This document shows, one piece after another, positions 68 through 3,785 of a stretch of 16,403 nucleotides of DNA. Under the pieces are notes generated by a model. It ran no database searches, was not told the origin of the DNA, and was given only the letters and a program-made list of their open reading frames with translations. The stretch lies in assembly GCF_048403405.1 (NCBI RefSeq), contig NZ_CP183130.1; one strand, given 5' to 3'. Both the position numbers and the translations under genes were made by a program. Every line of letters starts with the position of its first letter. Position 1 is the first letter of the stretch. The stretch is from Escherichia coli (GTDB lineage Bacteria; Pseudomonadota; Gammaproteobacteria; Enterobacterales; Enterobacteriaceae).

Positions 68-472
68 TTAATGTTGTTTCTTGTTTCCAGGAGATTCTGA
101 TCGACTGGAGCAGTATATTTCTTGCGTAGCAGAATCAACCGCAGGCAGGATCGCTTTTGCATTATTACCAGCAGACTGCAGAAATGCCTCCAGCAAACGA
201 ACGACTTCACCATTTTCCTGTTGTGGTAGCGTACTACTGATAATTCGTTGAATATCCTGCATAGACGTGCTGTCTGTCAGGAATTCAGCTATCAGGAACG
301 GCAATCGTTCATCCTGCTTCATCAATGCAGCACCACACAACATCATGGCCCGCATTGCCCGACCACGTTCTTTCTGAGGCAATTTTTCAAGAAACCTGTC
401 AGCCACCCGATCAGCTGCATTTCGTTCCGGATAAATATAAAAAGAGCACTTACGATTATCAGCCATACTCAT
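68..472 (-). CDS. parR: ParR/StbB-like centromere-binding adaptor of a type II (actin-like) partition system
   Basis: 134-aa ORF directly downstream of parM with a 4-nt ATGA start/stop overlap. Translation (KERGRAMRAMMLCGAALMKQDERLPFLIAEFLT) resembles plasmid R1 ParR as I recall it. Family assignment is from memory, not a search. Confidence 0.8.
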   Translation of the reverse strand: MSMADNRKCSFYIYPERNAADRVADRFLEKLPQKERGRAMRAMMLCGAALMKQDERLPFLIAEFLTDSTSMQDIQRIISSTLPQQENGEVVRLLEAFLQSAGNNAKAILPAVDSATQEIYCSSRSESPGNKKQH

Positions 473-1449
473 CCCTTCATTGCCATCATTCCCAACACCA
501 GATCGAACTGAGGATTGTCACTGACAAAGAAACGGTTATCACCCACTCCTGTCGCTTTTTTTACTGCCCCAGCCACAAGGCTGGCACCACCGCCAACAAC
601 CATAACATGAGTAAAACCAGCAAAGCGTCCTACTGAATCCGCCACACGATAATGCAGTTTTTTTTCCCGGTCACGTAATACTGTCAGGATCCGCTCACGC
701 TGTTCTGCATTCGGGATATAACGGGTCAGGAATTCATTGTCATCCCGGCCCTGGATTAGACGATCTGCAAAATAAGAACTGGTTCGTGTACTCACATTCA
801 CATCCATCGCATGCTTAACTGCTTCAGTAATGATGGAGACGCCAGTCTTGGGGTCACAATAGGTTTTTGTGAAACCTGACATTTTGCTGCGGACATGTGC
901 AATATCAAGGGTCGTTCCACCGATATCAACAATCAACAGCGACTCCAGATCATTCAGATCTTTCAGCACGTCAAAACCGGCAGGCACGGACTCAGGCAAG
1001 ACACTGACTTTACGAATGGTAAAGTTTTCACGCCCCTGAACTGTTACAGTTCGCCGGACATTATTTTTCTTACGTTCGATATTAGCCAGATTTGGCTGAT
1101 CGTTCTCATCCAGATACTCACCTAAAGGTAAAGTCACAACAATATCAACAGGTTGTGGAGCAATACCTGACTGCATCAACGCATGATGAATAGCAACCAC
1201 ATTAACGTCGCTGTACTGATAACGCGTTTCTGTGGTGCGCACTGCATCCGGACTCAATTGATCAAAGCTGTATTTTTCTCCATCAATCTCATAGTTTGCG
1301 GAAGCGGGTACAGTGGCATCAGTCAGTCCCTGCAGCGTCATAGACCATTCCGGCTTAAAACTATTCGGACTAATTAACGTTTTCACTGCACCGTCTTCAA
1401 CCCAGGCCAGTTTGATGTTGGTAGAGCCGTCGTCTACAAAGATACGCAT
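469..1449 (-). CDS. parM: ParM/StbA actin-like partition ATPase
   Basis: 326-aa ORF; N-terminus MRIFVDDGSTNIKLAW and internal LLIVDIGGTTLDI, HVMVVGGGA motifs match actin-fold ParM of R1/R100. GAGG RBS 7 nt upstream of the ATG. Confidence 0.9.
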   Translation of the reverse strand: MRIFVDDGSTNIKLAWVEDGAVKTLISPNSFKPEWSMTLQGLTDATVPASANYEIDGEKYSFDQLSPDAVRTTETRYQYSDVNVVAIHHALMQSGIAPQPVDIVVTLPLGEYLDENDQPNLANIERKKNNVRRTVTVQGRENFTIRKVSVLPESVPAGFDVLKDLNDLESLLIVDIGGTTLDIAHVRSKMSGFTKTYCDPKTGVSIITEAVKHAMDVNVSTRTSSYFADRLIQGRDDNEFLTRYIPNAEQRERILTVLRDREKKLHYRVADSVGRFAGFTHVMVVGGGASLVAGAVKKATGVGDNRFFVSDNPQFDLVLGMMAMKG

Positions 1450-1560
1450 CTAGAACCTCACATAAATAAAATGGATTTTTTTAGAAAAATACGAGATCAA
1501 AAACGATTATCACCTAAAACAACGTATCGGTAAAGACCTGATATCGGCCACAAATGGAAA

Positions 1561-1660
1561 AATAAAGAAAAACACAGACAAAAACCGACACCAACAGCAC
1601 AAAAGAGAACAAACAAGAACAAATAAAGATAAACACTGATGAAATCCAGAAAAAACTCAA
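1561..1660. repeat. Putative parC-like centromere: about ten A-rich units with ~10-bp periodicity (approximate consensus AAACAAGAAC) upstream of parM
   Basis: Chunking 1561-1660 into 10-mers gives related units (aacacagaca, aaaaccgaca, aaaagagaac, aaacaagaac, aaacactgat ...). Position upstream of parMR is where ParR-bound iterons are expected. The repeats are degenerate and were aligned by eye only. Confidence 0.35.
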
Positions 1661-1786
1661 AGCTTCATATACAATGTCAGTAATTCATCCTCTGACGCCA
1701 CCACTACCTCCAGCCAAAATGAGCGGGTAAGATATCCGGAGCCTTATAGTCAGGAGGCTTCTACAGGAAAGCTGATGAGGAAGAGA

Positions 1787-2122
1787 ATGCGAACGATCAC
1801 CACACGTGAACAGTTATTAGTGAACGGAAAAGTCAGGGAACGGATTGCCACACATATCGTGACAGGCGCTCACGGGTATGAAACGCTTTGCACAAGTGGT
1901 TATAACTTACAATACAATAAGGAACGGGTACTGATTGAAAACTGCGAAAAGGTGGCTGATGGAGAACTGCCTGTCACCTGCCACACTTGTTTCTCTATAT
2001 GGCAGGATGTACACCGGTTCAAACCTGGTGACTTTGACACAGAATCAGGAAAGGGAAATTTCACTGATACGGAGCTCACGAAAATCACAATTGGACAAGA
2101 AAAAACGCCGAATGCGTGTTGA
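1787..2122 (+). CDS. Hypothetical small Cys-containing protein (start ambiguous, 1775 or 1787)
   Basis: ORF 1775..2122; the second in-frame ATG at 1787 has a GAGGAA RBS. Product has a CHTC pair and further Cys residues. No family recognised. Confidence 0.4.
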   Translation: MRTITTREQLLVNGKVRERIATHIVTGAHGYETLCTSGYNLQYNKERVLIENCEKVADGELPVTCHTCFSIWQDVHRFKPGDFDTESGKGNFTDTELTKITIGQEKTPNAC

Positions 2123-2173
2123 TGTGCCGCGTCAGCCGGCGCAGTAAAAAGAGGAGCATGGCGACATCCTTTA

Positions 2174-2203
2174 CCGGAAAAGAAACGGGCGGTTGCCCGC
2201 CCG
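2174..2203 (-). terminator. Intrinsic terminator-like hairpin downstream of the 323-aa minus-strand gene
   Basis: Perfect 7-bp GC stem CGGGCGG/CCGCCCG (2186-2192 and 2197-2203) with a 4-nt loop; on the minus strand it is followed by TTTCTTTTCC (plus 2174-2185). Confidence 0.45.
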
Positions 2204-2216
2204 TCTCCGTCATACT

Positions 2217-3143
2217 TCATCCACCGTAATGCGCCACCTTGTCGACTATCCACGCAGGTCCGGTGACTTCCGGCAGCTCATCATCATCTGTCGGGGAAGA
2301 CCATTCCAGCTCCCCCCACAGCACATCAACAAGCTCTCCGCGCTCATACAACTGCCAGCCACAGAAATCACAGCCCTGTTCGGCATACCAGTGCTCCAGC
2401 GTGCAGCTGAAACGGCGGCTTAATTCTGCAATAACGTCGCTTTCCGGCTGACACCACGGCGTGTCGAAATCAACCTGAATGAAGTTGTCTCCCTGACTAC
2501 TGATATTCAGGTCATACCCACAAGGCCACTTCACGCCATACCGTTCTGTATACCAGTGATATGCAGAAGGAACACCGTTCAGAACACCGCCGTTAAAGCC
2601 ATTCACTTCAATATCCAGGCGGGTCGGCAAAACCGTCAGCAGGTCAAACGGCATGGTTTTTTCCGGCAGTACGTTGTCACACAGACGGTTCCACCACACC
2701 GATACATCCTCGTTACCCCAGATGTCACACCAGTCACCTCTTTTTGCGGTGAAATGCACAGTGATAGTTTCCCTGACATCATCCGGTAACTCTTCCCAGC
2801 GACGCTGTCCAGTACCGCTCTGCAGCCAGAGTTCATGCAGCATCAGGCAGTTTTGCTCATCCAGCAGTACACCGTTCTGCAGGTGTGTCAGCCAGCGGGT
2901 GAACGCGATATTTTCCGGTGATACAGCACCACGTCCGGCAGCCGTCACTCCGGGGCACTGCTCAGAGCGGATATTTTCAGTGATCTGCAGAAGTCCGGCA
3001 CTTCCGGCCAGAAACAGCTGAATACCTTCATTTGTGGCGCGGCGATAAAGCGGTGTGACTGCACCGCTGGCCAGTCGTTTAATCTCAGCGATCTGTGCTG
3101 GTTCACCAGAAAAATACATACGATTCGAGCACCAGTTTGGCAT
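2217..3143 (-). CDS. Conserved-looking hypothetical protein (~308 aa), Trp/Cys-rich, function unknown
   Basis: ORF 2217..3188 minus; GAGGAG RBS sits 8 nt before the internal Met (MPNWCSNRMYF...), so the start is placed at 3143. Long intact ORF with an rho-independent-type hairpin after its stop. No family confidently recognised. Confidence 0.65.
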   Translation of the reverse strand: MPNWCSNRMYFSGEPAQIAEIKRLASGAVTPLYRRATNEGIQLFLAGSAGLLQITENIRSEQCPGVTAAGRGAVSPENIAFTRWLTHLQNGVLLDEQNCLMLHELWLQSGTGQRRWEELPDDVRETITVHFTAKRGDWCDIWGNEDVSVWWNRLCDNVLPEKTMPFDLLTVLPTRLDIEVNGFNGGVLNGVPSAYHWYTERYGVKWPCGYDLNISSQGDNFIQVDFDTPWCQPESDVIAELSRRFSCTLEHWYAEQGCDFCGWQLYERGELVDVLWGELEWSSPTDDDELPEVTGPAWIVDKVAHYGG

Positions 3144-3379
3144 GGGAATTCTCCTCTCACATGCGGCCTCCATCAGGCCGTGCCGCACCTGTAACCGGGC
3201 GACCGCATACGAATGCAGGTGCGGCCCCGAAGCCGCAGCGCGTGGAGGAGGAACGACGAAACGTGACCGGGTGAGGAGGCCGGCGACAGCGACACACTTG
3301 CATCGGATGCAGCCCGGTTAACGTGCCGGCACGGCCTGGGTAACCAGGTATTTTATTCACAGAACCGTGCGCAAAATGC

Positions 3380-3388
3380 TGTGGATAA
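3380..3388. promoter_or_regulatory. Perfect DnaA-box 9-mer (TGTGGATAA) in the GC-rich intergenic region upstream of the imp promoter
   Basis: Exact match to TTATCCACA on the complementary strand. A single 9-mer can occur by chance; function not established. Confidence 0.25.
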
Positions 3389-3466
3389 GCTGGACACAGC
3401 AGTCCACAGCAGGCATACAGCCACACTCCCAGAGAATTGAGCGTTTTTTAGTCACAATAATGACAT

Positions 3467-3515
3467 TTGACTGTGTGTGGATTCAGTTATTAGAATACTG
3501 TATATGCATACAGCA
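3467..3515 (+). promoter_or_regulatory. imp operon promoter (-35 TTGACT, -10 TAGAAT) with a LexA/SOS box TACTGTATATGCATACAGCA
   Basis: CTGT-N8-ACAG at 3498-3513 within TACTGTATATGCATACAGCA (3496-3515), close to the LexA consensus TACTGTATATATATACAGTA. TTGACT at 3467-3472 and TAGAAT at 3491-3496 with an 18-bp spacer. The box abuts the -10 and lies ~22 nt before the impC ATG. Confidence 0.8.
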
Positions 3516-3536
3516 ATAGAAAAGGGAGATGAGAAC

Positions 3537-3785
3537 ATGATCCGCATTGAAATTCTTTTCGACCGCCAGAGCACAAAAAACCTCAAATCAGGCACACTTC
3601 AGGCGCTACAGAATGAAATCGAACAACGTCTGAAACCACACTACCCGGAAATCTGGCTGCGTATAGACCAGGGCAGCGCCCCGTCTGTATCTGTCACAGG
3701 AGCCCGCAACGACAAGGATAAAGAACGTATCCTGTCTCTGCTGGAAGAAATCTGGCAGGACGACAGCTGGCTGCCTGCAGCATGA
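3537..3785 (+). CDS. impC: ImpC, small first gene of the impCAB SOS mutagenesis operon
   Basis: Internal ATG at 3537 with an AAGGGAG RBS gives 82 aa, the size I recall for ImpC of plasmid TP110. Stop overlaps the impA start (ATGA). Confidence 0.7.
   Translation: MIRIEILFDRQSTKNLKSGTLQALQNEIEQRLKPHYPEIWLRIDQGSAPSVSVTGARNDKDKERILSLLEEIWQDDSWLPAA

Follow-up and report, generated by a model that had tools for sequence, protein, structure and literature searches.

A predicted class 2 single-stranded DNA promoter upstream of the DUF1281 gene, beside a conserved DnaA-box module, at the far boundary of the IncI1 plasmid leading region

The window, that is the whole 16,403-nt stretch of DNA analysed here, belongs to an IncI1 plasmid of Escherichia coli; its sole Rfam match at gathering score is the repZ regulatory pseudoknot at 12084-12232. 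Within it, a spacer separates a DUF1281 gene (Api92-like; YafB in IncI1, YfdA in F), encoded on the - strand at 2217-3143, from the divergent SOS operon impCAB, of which the dinI-like gene impC begins at 3537 on the + strand (Pfam DinI match, 8e-18). The impC promoter (TTGACT, 18 nt, TAGAAT; 3467-3496, + strand) and its LexA box (TACTGTATATGCATACAGCA; 3496-3515, + strand) lie outside the element studied here. The product of the DUF1281 gene, which is the putative target of that element, matches Pfam DUF1281 (6e-47) and DUF1281_C (1.5e-15) as well as PDB entry 2IJR, 'api92' (3e-47). Its likely start is the ATG at 3143-3141, with a Shine-Dalgarno sequence GAGGAG (CTCCTC on the + strand; 3151-3156) 7 nt upstream on the - strand, which gives a protein of 308 amino acids, and RefSeq annotates the same 927-nt coding sequence in pESBL. 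A preliminary description of this DNA was right in placing a divergent gene here, but the 323 amino acids that it gave correspond to a mechanical open reading frame from GTG 3188, a position inside the hairpin described below. Just past the DUF1281 stop codon a terminator-like GC hairpin can be read by eye on the - strand (ACGGGCGG-GCAA-CCGCCCGT, then TTTCTTTT; 2183-2210). It was not called by the consensus terminator scan; the same sequence is found 3' of DUF1281 in pESBL. The presence of this hairpin after the stop codon suggests that DUF1281 forms a monocistronic unit.

In pEK204 and pESBL, ardA, psiA/B, ssb, klcA, the M.EcoGIX methylase gene and DUF1281 are co-oriented toward nikA/oriT, with impCAB in the opposite orientation. 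The transferred strand is the template of leading-region genes, as stated in the texts of PMC12672017 and PMC11541004. Hence, since the + strand of the window is the template for the oriT-directed leading-region genes, it corresponds to the transferred strand (T strand). DUF1281 is the last T-strand gene of the leading region, about 17 kb from oriT, and represents the leading-region-enriched family 27 with 1,949 members, also YfdA, YafB and YccB (Samuel et al. 2024, PMC11541004). The same authors place the end of anti-defence islands at umu-like operons, most of which do not have the T-strand orientation, and the DUF1281-impC spacer is such an island boundary. No sigma-70 promoter-like site was called on the - strand from 3050 to 3600, and thus no conventional duplex promoter for DUF1281.

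The spacer is rich in G+C (61% at 3144-3345) and dense in palindromes. As the preliminary description had pointed out, this composition sets it apart from the other intergenic DNA of the window, with a G+C fraction of 0.61 over 3101-3400 compared to 0.28-0.41 in the remaining intergenic stretches. All the palindromes that it quoted are located at 3182-3333 and comprise a perfect 10-bp pairing of GCCGCACCTG (3182-3191) with CAGGTGCGGC (3216-3225), the short palindromes TGCGGC with GCCGCA (3220-3225 and 3232-3237) and TGCATC with GATGCA (3299-3304 and 3306-3311), and the motif GTGCCGGCAC (3324-3333). They are present as sequence, but they are not separate elements, being mostly portions of one long-range hairpin with arms at 3174-3200 and 3312-3338. 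Indeed, fold prediction, profile match and covariation delineate at 3174-3338, on the + (transferred) strand, a long imperfect hairpin that is a short variant of the class 2 ssDNA promoter family. Its basal stem pairs 3174-3188 with 3323-3338; beyond an internal loop, a second stem pairs 3192-3200 with 3312-3320, followed by a third one of 3205-3217 with 3299-3310. The apical part contains small hairpins, including the one formed by 3220-3225 and 3232-3237. From the base of the hairpin to the ATG of DUF1281 there are 30 nt. The DNA fold has an energy of -51.1 kcal/mol with a z-score of -2.8, and 2 of 200 shuffled sequences fold equally well; given this modest z-score, the reality of the hairpin rests on homology and covariation. 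Rfam contains nothing that matches the spacer at gathering score, and at E<=1 no match falls inside the hairpin, the only one being a chance snoRNA match outside it. A terminator-like site on the + strand at 3334-3349 was dismissed, as it is within chance expectation and absent from the homologues.

Local blastn connects the element weakly to the spacers that precede ardA and klcA. It can be aligned with the hairpins of these two spacers, with ssp2 of F and with the candidates Frpo'4, Frpo*1 and Frpo*3 of Samuel et al., and the blocks GCCGTG, CGGGCG, AAGCCGCA, CGGGTGA, CTTGCAT, GCCCGGnTA and CACGGC are common to it and the class 2 copies. An nhmmer profile built without the element and its F copy recovered 3177-3335, on the + strand only, with E=8.2e-14 and 43.5 bits, compared to the weak matches of a profile made from just three long near-identical copies (E=0.003 for the 3' arm, 0.24 for the 5' arm). 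The family is widespread, given that the blastn search with one candidate matched 4,056 plasmid records from Klebsiella, Enterobacter, Serratia, Citrobacter, Yersinia, Pantoea and Erwinia. Covariation was assessed on 19 members, taken from six plasmids and the published candidates, with a consensus fold of 34 pairs. A locus search of genome contigs with the DUF1281 protein gave four near-identical loci, and diversity was taken from tblastn/blastn of a plasmid collection. Among the 19 members and 34 pairs, 94% of the cells pair, as opposed to 32-42% when the partners are slid, and compensatory changes occur in 19 of the 34 pairs. Double-change cells number 76, compared to 22.4+-3.9 in column shuffles, and on any of five covariation measures none of 500 shuffles reaches the observed value. 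Of the 34 consensus pairs, the element has 30, its two G.T pairs included. In light of these results, we consider it highly probable that the element is a member of the class 2 (ssp2-type) family.

The first option of the preliminary description was an element known from plasmid leading regions, either a single-strand promoter or a priming site. The homology to class 2 ssDNA promoters, the location on the transferred strand upstream of a co-oriented gene and the retention of TTG...TA...T support this proposal, but as a promoter of a type other than the classical Frpo/ssi one, and with the DnaA box of the same spacer as a separate conserved module 3' of the hairpin and not a part of it. A blastn search (word size 7, E<=1) against Frpo (ssiD) and ssi1-3 of ColIb detected no similarity in 3100-3500, and identity with the classical Frpo/ssi elements was rejected for lack of similarity to five known sequences.

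A -35-like TTGCAT (3298-3303) and a -10-like TAACGT (3319-3324; family pattern TAnnnT) are both found on the 3' arm, on the + strand. The former is paired with ATGCA of 3212-3217, and the latter is placed in the internal loop, where the predicted pair map leaves A3321 and C3322 unpaired opposite 3189-3191. They are separated by 15 nt on the 3' arm versus 18 nt on the template arm, and their register equals that of TTGCAT/TAAGAT in the mapped class 2 copies. The TTG of the -35 and the T, A and T of the -10 are the positions most important to sigma-70, and it is these that are invariant, or nearly so, across the family. Furthermore, the first T of TTG is constant although it pairs with G in 12 sequences and with A in 7 (alignment columns 63/210), which speaks for selection of this base and not of the pairing. 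From the position of the -10, transcription is predicted to start within the template arm at 3180-3182 (- strand), opposite A3331. Such a start, roughly 7 nt past the -10 and near template T3181, would produce a 38-nt leader to the ATG at 3143, including the Shine-Dalgarno sequence.

The folding energies of the two strands are nearly equal, with a small asymmetry, and the family alignment contains 29 G.T cells versus 6 A.C cells, an excess that is partly built in by the prediction method. Strand asymmetry was thus rejected as proof of which strand folds, and because the fold energies barely differ, the transferred strand was assigned from the orientation of the gene and of the motifs, together with experiments on homologues. 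The 14 distinct copies of the family found in pEK204/pESBL, F, a plasmid of Serratia and one of E. kobei all belong to the T strand, and for 13 of them the start of an annotated gene in the same orientation follows within about 100 nt. The downstream genes vary from copy to copy (antirestriction, methylase, DUF1380, hypothetical). The reverse is seen as well, since in plasmids of Klebsiella, Salmonella, Citrobacter and Edwardsiella it is a second copy of the class 3 hairpin, likewise a mapped ssDNA promoter, that precedes DUF1281, the DUF1281 homologues behind it being 44-48% identical, while in E. kobei and Serratia a methylase is found behind a class 2-like hairpin instead. These class 2/class 3 swaps indicate that ssDNA-promoter hairpins act as interchangeable cassettes before the same genes, and the class 3 hairpin before DUF1281 in other lineages indicates that this gene is always fed by a hairpin of such kind.

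Conservation across related plasmids, which the preliminary description had put forward as a check, is high. A 441-bp region is 100% identical in many IncI1 plasmids, and 3145-3432 is about 96% identical in thousands of IncF plasmids, among them F, where the copy sits between sopB/sopC and the DUF1281 gene, just upstream of yfdA. When IncI1 is set against F, 2 of the 165 hairpin positions and none of the 30 leader positions are different, compared to 6.8% of the coding sequence, 11% of third codon positions and 12% of the next 97 aligned columns (3339-3432). The constraint on the hairpin is significant with respect to the coding sequence (P = 8e-4) and to third codon positions (P = 1e-6). This near-identity could, however, come from recent recombination instead of selection.

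Outside the hairpin, on its 3' side, the exact DnaA box claimed in the preliminary description was found at 3380-3388, on the - strand (TTATCCACA; TGTGGATAA on +). A weak DnaA-like box with 8 of 9 matches (TTATTCACA; 3353-3361, + strand) is inverted with respect to it, the two forming an inverted pair 18 nt apart; F has TTGTCCACA in place of the weak box. A local hairpin of TGCTGTGGA and TCCACAGCA that includes part of the exact box (3377-3411, + strand) folds with -14.2 kcal/mol and a z-score of -3.3, and a similar fold value is obtained on the - strand. The copy of TCCACAGCA at 3403-3411 can pair with the exact box. An alternative hairpin, 3353-3388, would render the whole box double-stranded through a 10-bp stem with one T.G, but the minimum-energy fold uses another partner than the weak box. 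In the whole window two exact DnaA boxes were found versus about 0.125 expected, the second one being by the repZ origin.

The box is exact in five of the seven DUF1281 lineages sampled (IncI1, F, Klebsiella IncFII, Salmonella IncFIB and C. portucalensis), degenerate in Edwardsiella (GGTGGATAT) and altered by a 1-nt deletion in a C. freundii plasmid. Each DUF1281 locus examined has one box, at an equivalent place and on the same strand, and where exact it is the sole exact box of the leading region. Across five lineages the spacer has a mean column identity of 33%, with GTGGATA as the sole invariant run. In leading regions without DUF1281 (Serratia, E. kobei), exact boxes occur only near the replication genes. 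Thus the box recurs under either hairpin class and is absent without DUF1281, which argues that it travels with this gene; it is kept in F as well, where no SOS operon adjoins. The DnaA-box module at 3353-3411 is a conserved neighbour that is separate from the hairpin.

Class 2 start sites have been mapped by 5' RACE in pESBL and induction followed by RNA-seq, and the text of that study describes six induced operons (Wen et al. 2025, PMC12672017). For the leading region of F, four ssDNA-promoter operons have been reported (bioRxiv 10.64898/2026.01.09.698686). Both pESBL and F carry the element, and it is not among the six and four operons reported in the text of these two papers. Since the operon lists omit the element even though it is present, DUF1281 may not be strongly induced. 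The mining of Wen et al. used a 300-nt window moved in 10-nt steps, RNAfold with DNA parameters and a cut-off of -75 kcal/mol. When this mining was repeated on the T strand of pESBL, exactly six sites fell below -75 kcal/mol, namely ssi1, ssi2, ardA, ssi3, klcA and M.EcoGIX. In a 300-nt window the element has -70.5 kcal/mol, compared to -81 to -101 kcal/mol for the six mapped hairpins, and hence stays above a threshold that is a screening cut-off and not a biological definition. The screen of Samuel et al., a BLAST search at E<=1e-6 over a large set, probably misses the element too: the best of their candidates matches it with E=3e-6 even against the single window, and no megablast match was obtained. 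The family itself was described in 2025, but the element and the conserved DnaA site beside it seem to be unreported. With the element, the hairpins number seven in pESBL-type plasmids and five in F. Identity with the class 3 (M.EcoGIX) promoter of Wen et al. was rejected, as the latter is downstream of DUF1281 and different in sequence.

The family homology, the conserved fold, the promoter-like positions, the strand and the location are observed, and from them we infer, with moderate confidence, that 3174-3338 is a class 2 (ssp2) ssDNA promoter and that this copy is active. During transfer, the + strand would enter the recipient 5' end first, with ardA, psiB, ssb and others leading and DUF1281 last. 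Once single-stranded, the segment would fold into the imperfect hairpin of about 165 nt, whose 3' arm would serve as the non-template strand of a sigma-70 promoter (TTGCAT, 15 nt, TAACGT) with a -10 kept partly open by the internal loop. RNA polymerase would then initiate near template position 3181, copy the 5' arm and leave the hairpin in the oriT-ward direction into DUF1281 (yafB/yfdA), resulting in early 'zygotic' expression of this gene. Synthesis of the complementary strand would flatten the hairpin and turn the promoter off. Our confidence in this activity is lower than in family membership, because a strong induction of DUF1281 would presumably have been counted as a seventh operon.

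The hairpin could instead act mainly in complementary-strand synthesis, as a barrier at the far edge of the leading region and/or as a source of RNA primers, which we regard as unlikely. Such a barrier would stall synthesis arriving from the maintenance side, so that the leading region stays single-stranded for longer, and some promoter activity would be compatible with it. The element does belong to the ssp2 family by sequence and structure, and ssp2 has been reported to stall complementary-strand synthesis at the base of its stem, with UvrD needed to pass, an effect that the class 3 hairpin lacks in spite of its higher stability (bioRxiv 10.64898/2026.01.09.698686). In the same study, the distal leading-region loci yfdA and yffB of F still convert at 60-90 s, which is later than their distance from oriT predicts and unchanged by ssp2 deletion. 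Given that the F copy is just upstream of yfdA, this class 2-like hairpin would be a candidate second barrier in F, which we offer only as a hypothesis; the position of the element exactly at the island boundary, beside a umu-like operon, fits as well. However, no stall is reported at the element, which is shorter and weaker than ssp2, and the promoter explains the conserved TTG/TA..T and the fixed place before the start codon where a barrier does not. To our knowledge, the priming of the incoming F strand is unsettled, and the DnaA module at 3353-3411 might be a single-strand initiation site of the ABC-primosome type, although this is unlikely. The entering strand would fold the box into a small hairpin duplex, on which DnaA would load DnaB-DnaC for primase to begin the complementary strand, and synthesis would cover the rest of the plasmid. 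The 10-bp stem (one T.G) open to the exact box and the inverted 8/9 box 18 nt away agrees with such a site, and inverted boxes recur at 17-nt spacing in the Klebsiella and Salmonella loci, whose surroundings are 33% identical per column. Moreover, the F differences retain G.T wobbles on the + strand of the module, and the ABC primosome requires just a one-DnaA-box hairpin on SSB-coated ssDNA (PMC6127211). Against this, the minimum-energy hairpin in both the window and F pairs the box with another partner, with its TAA left single-stranded, the hairpins of other lineages are weak (z -0.1 to -1.7) with both strands folding equally well, the box is not intact in Edwardsiella and in the C. freundii plasmid, and an inverted box pair is equally typical of a double-stranded DnaA binding site.

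Another reading of the spacer is that of a conventional duplex control region, where DnaA or a protein binding TCCACAG/CTGTGGA would regulate a normal DUF1281 promoter, or shield it from the SOS promoter, and where the GC-rich hairpin would be a structured mRNA leader. The four CACAG-type repeats around the box (3356-3409) are in line with it, as is the fact that the box stays with DUF1281 under any hairpin class and is missing from leading regions without this gene; a possible weak -10, TAAAAT (- strand, 3355-3350), read by eye, overlaps the weak box. We nevertheless hold it very improbable, given that the promoter scan yielded no site on the - strand and that the loci of Klebsiella and Salmonella do not conserve one. 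Furthermore, an mRNA leader would correspond to the - strand, where the G.T pairs of the family turn into A.C mismatches and the consensus fold is slightly worse, and the text of PMC12672017 describes the homologous hairpins as mapped ssDNA promoters with starts inside the hairpin. A decayed, inactive class 2 relic next to a chance DnaA box would account for the shorter hairpin, the weaker -10 and the absence from the operons reported as induced. This is most improbable when IncI1 and F have just 2 differences in the 165 nt, against 11-12% in flanks and third codon positions, when the element retains every key promoter position and 28 of the 34 consensus pairs, and when the DnaA box recurs across lineages whose spacers are otherwise unrelated. 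Finally, hairpin and DnaA-box module might jointly make the far edge of the leading region a point at which complementary-strand synthesis in the recipient is controlled. DnaA, bound to the box once the strand enters, would load DnaB and primase, and the remaining plasmid would be copied discontinuously; the hairpin would restrain synthesis from entering the anti-defence island, which would keep ssDNA promoters active for longer. This is quite unlikely; if true, F-like and I-like plasmids would have a defined, host-DnaA-dependent priming site for establishment.

Leading-region ssDNA promoters set which plasmid genes (anti-restriction, anti-SOS, methylase) are made in the first minutes after transfer, and through this choice of early genes they affect the establishment of resistance plasmids in new hosts. 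As an ssDNA promoter, the element would add one promoter each to the maps of pESBL and F, before the very common DUF1281 (about 1,950 members), whose function is not known. It illustrates that fixed energy or BLAST cut-offs miss shorter members of the family, and across plasmid lineages this one gene is served by exchangeable hairpin classes. The conserved DnaA box, for its part, offers a concrete and testable way into the question of how the incoming strand encounters the replication machinery of the host.

Compared to known systems, the DnaA-box module resembles the A site of the ABC primosome (Masai et al. 1990; Masai & Arai 1995, both as described in the text of PMC6127211) in having an exact R1/R4-type box that can be placed in the stem of a hairpin, on a strand that becomes single-stranded in the cell. 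In contrast to the A site, a hairpin duplexing the full box is not the predicted optimum here, and the module may act on duplex DNA. The class 3 hairpin, found before M.EcoGIX and as ssp3 in F, occupies the equivalent spot before DUF1281 in other lineages and is followed there by the same DnaA-box module, but it differs from the element in sequence and fold; in pESBL (NC_018659.1) it lies at about 54,490-54,739, inside a hypothetical-protein ORF. With Frpo/ssiD of F, ssi1-3 of ColIb-P9 and class 1 in general (Masai & Arai 1997; Bates et al. 1999), the element has in common the principle of a T-strand hairpin that rebuilds a sigma-70 promoter, located in the leading region before co-oriented genes and active only as ssDNA, the last being predicted for the element. 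It has no detectable similarity to them, a different fold and no A+T-rich UP-like apical stem. Frpo*1, Frpo*3 and Frpo'4 of Samuel et al. 2024 (PMC11541004, Supplementary Table 2), which are low-certainty Frpo* candidates, belong to the same family as the element, and Frpo*1 and Frpo*3 have its short apical architecture; these candidates differ in coming from an insect-gut metagenome element, and their BLAST similarity to the element is weak. The closest counterparts are the mapped class 2 copies, that is, those of pESBL (ardA, klcA) and ssp2 of F (yfgB/ardB). Unlike them, the element has no apical extension of about 50 nt, its -10 TAACGT is further from consensus than their TAAGAT, and in a 300-nt window it reaches -70.5 kcal/mol versus -81 and -84 kcal/mol for the mapped copies. 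Its putative target is another gene, DUF1281, its place is the far edge of the leading region, and the DnaA-box module behind it has no counterpart in the mapped copies. Like them, it is a three-stem hairpin of the T strand with the -35 and -10 on the 3' arm, a 15-nt spacer between the two and the -10 in an internal loop, and it is placed tens of nucleotides upstream of a leading-region start codon.

The hairpin classes found ahead of the leading-region genes behave like swappable cassettes. Upstream of DUF1281, the class 2-like hairpin is replaced by another, second copy of the class 3 one (the family of ssDNA promoters found ahead of the M.EcoGIX methylase) in plasmids of Klebsiella, Salmonella, Edwardsiella and Citrobacter, at positions 2236-2453, 2234-2452, 2736-2952, 1234-1452 and 1233-1452 of the compared loci L008, L009, L014, L015 and L016 respectively. 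Conversely, a class 2-like hairpin lies upstream of the methylase in E. kobei (L013 13732-13920) and in Serratia (L012 16827-16968). The Serratia proteamaculans plasmid concerned (NZ_MT039180.1), a MOBP/MPF_I plasmid far from IncI1 and IncF, carries seven class 2-like hairpins in a single leading region (L012 3710-16968), all of them on the transferred strand.

Ahead of the methylase, the class 3 hairpin is located at L011 4591-4840 (L011 being NC_018659.1 49900-76000, from pESBL), L001 10596-10846 and L003 7874-8124, and it folds at -109 kcal/mol over 401 nt with a z of -6. Nearly all of it is enclosed by an ORF of ~ 100 aa. The pESBL, pEK204 and F annotations label this ORF a hypothetical protein; it is probably no real gene.

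The C. freundii plasmid CP057320.1 (L016) displays CTGTGG-TAAGCTGGACACAGCA on the transferred strand, ~ 330-400 nt upstream of DUF1281. This is the same module as the one at 3379-3401 of the window, minus one A within the DnaA box, and its inverted partner TGTCCACAG is retained. Besides the box in that module, the window has one other exact DnaA box, at 10864-10872 on the - strand near repZ, presumably that of the origin. A consensus scan of the window called as terminator-like a small hairpin followed by ATTTTATT (3334-3349, + strand); this candidate was rejected given that homologues lack such a site and that the call does not exceed chance expectation.

On the 3' side of DUF1281, the conserved flank corresponds to window 2125-2216 and includes a terminator-like hairpin. 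Comparison of L011 4499-4600 with window 469-2125 shows that in pESBL and F the class 3 hairpin, then the methylase, directly follow DUF1281, while the plasmid of the window and pEK204 bear an insertion there that brings in a parM/stbB-like partition pair along with an ORF of 115 aa on the + strand.

Adjoining the IncI1 replication region, window 10190-10330 contains the collinear blocks AGCGGCATGGAAGGC, GCCGAAGCCC and CCTGCCAGACCAT, which match the single-strand initiation sequence ssiE of F (top HSP E=0.008; 51% identity in global alignment).
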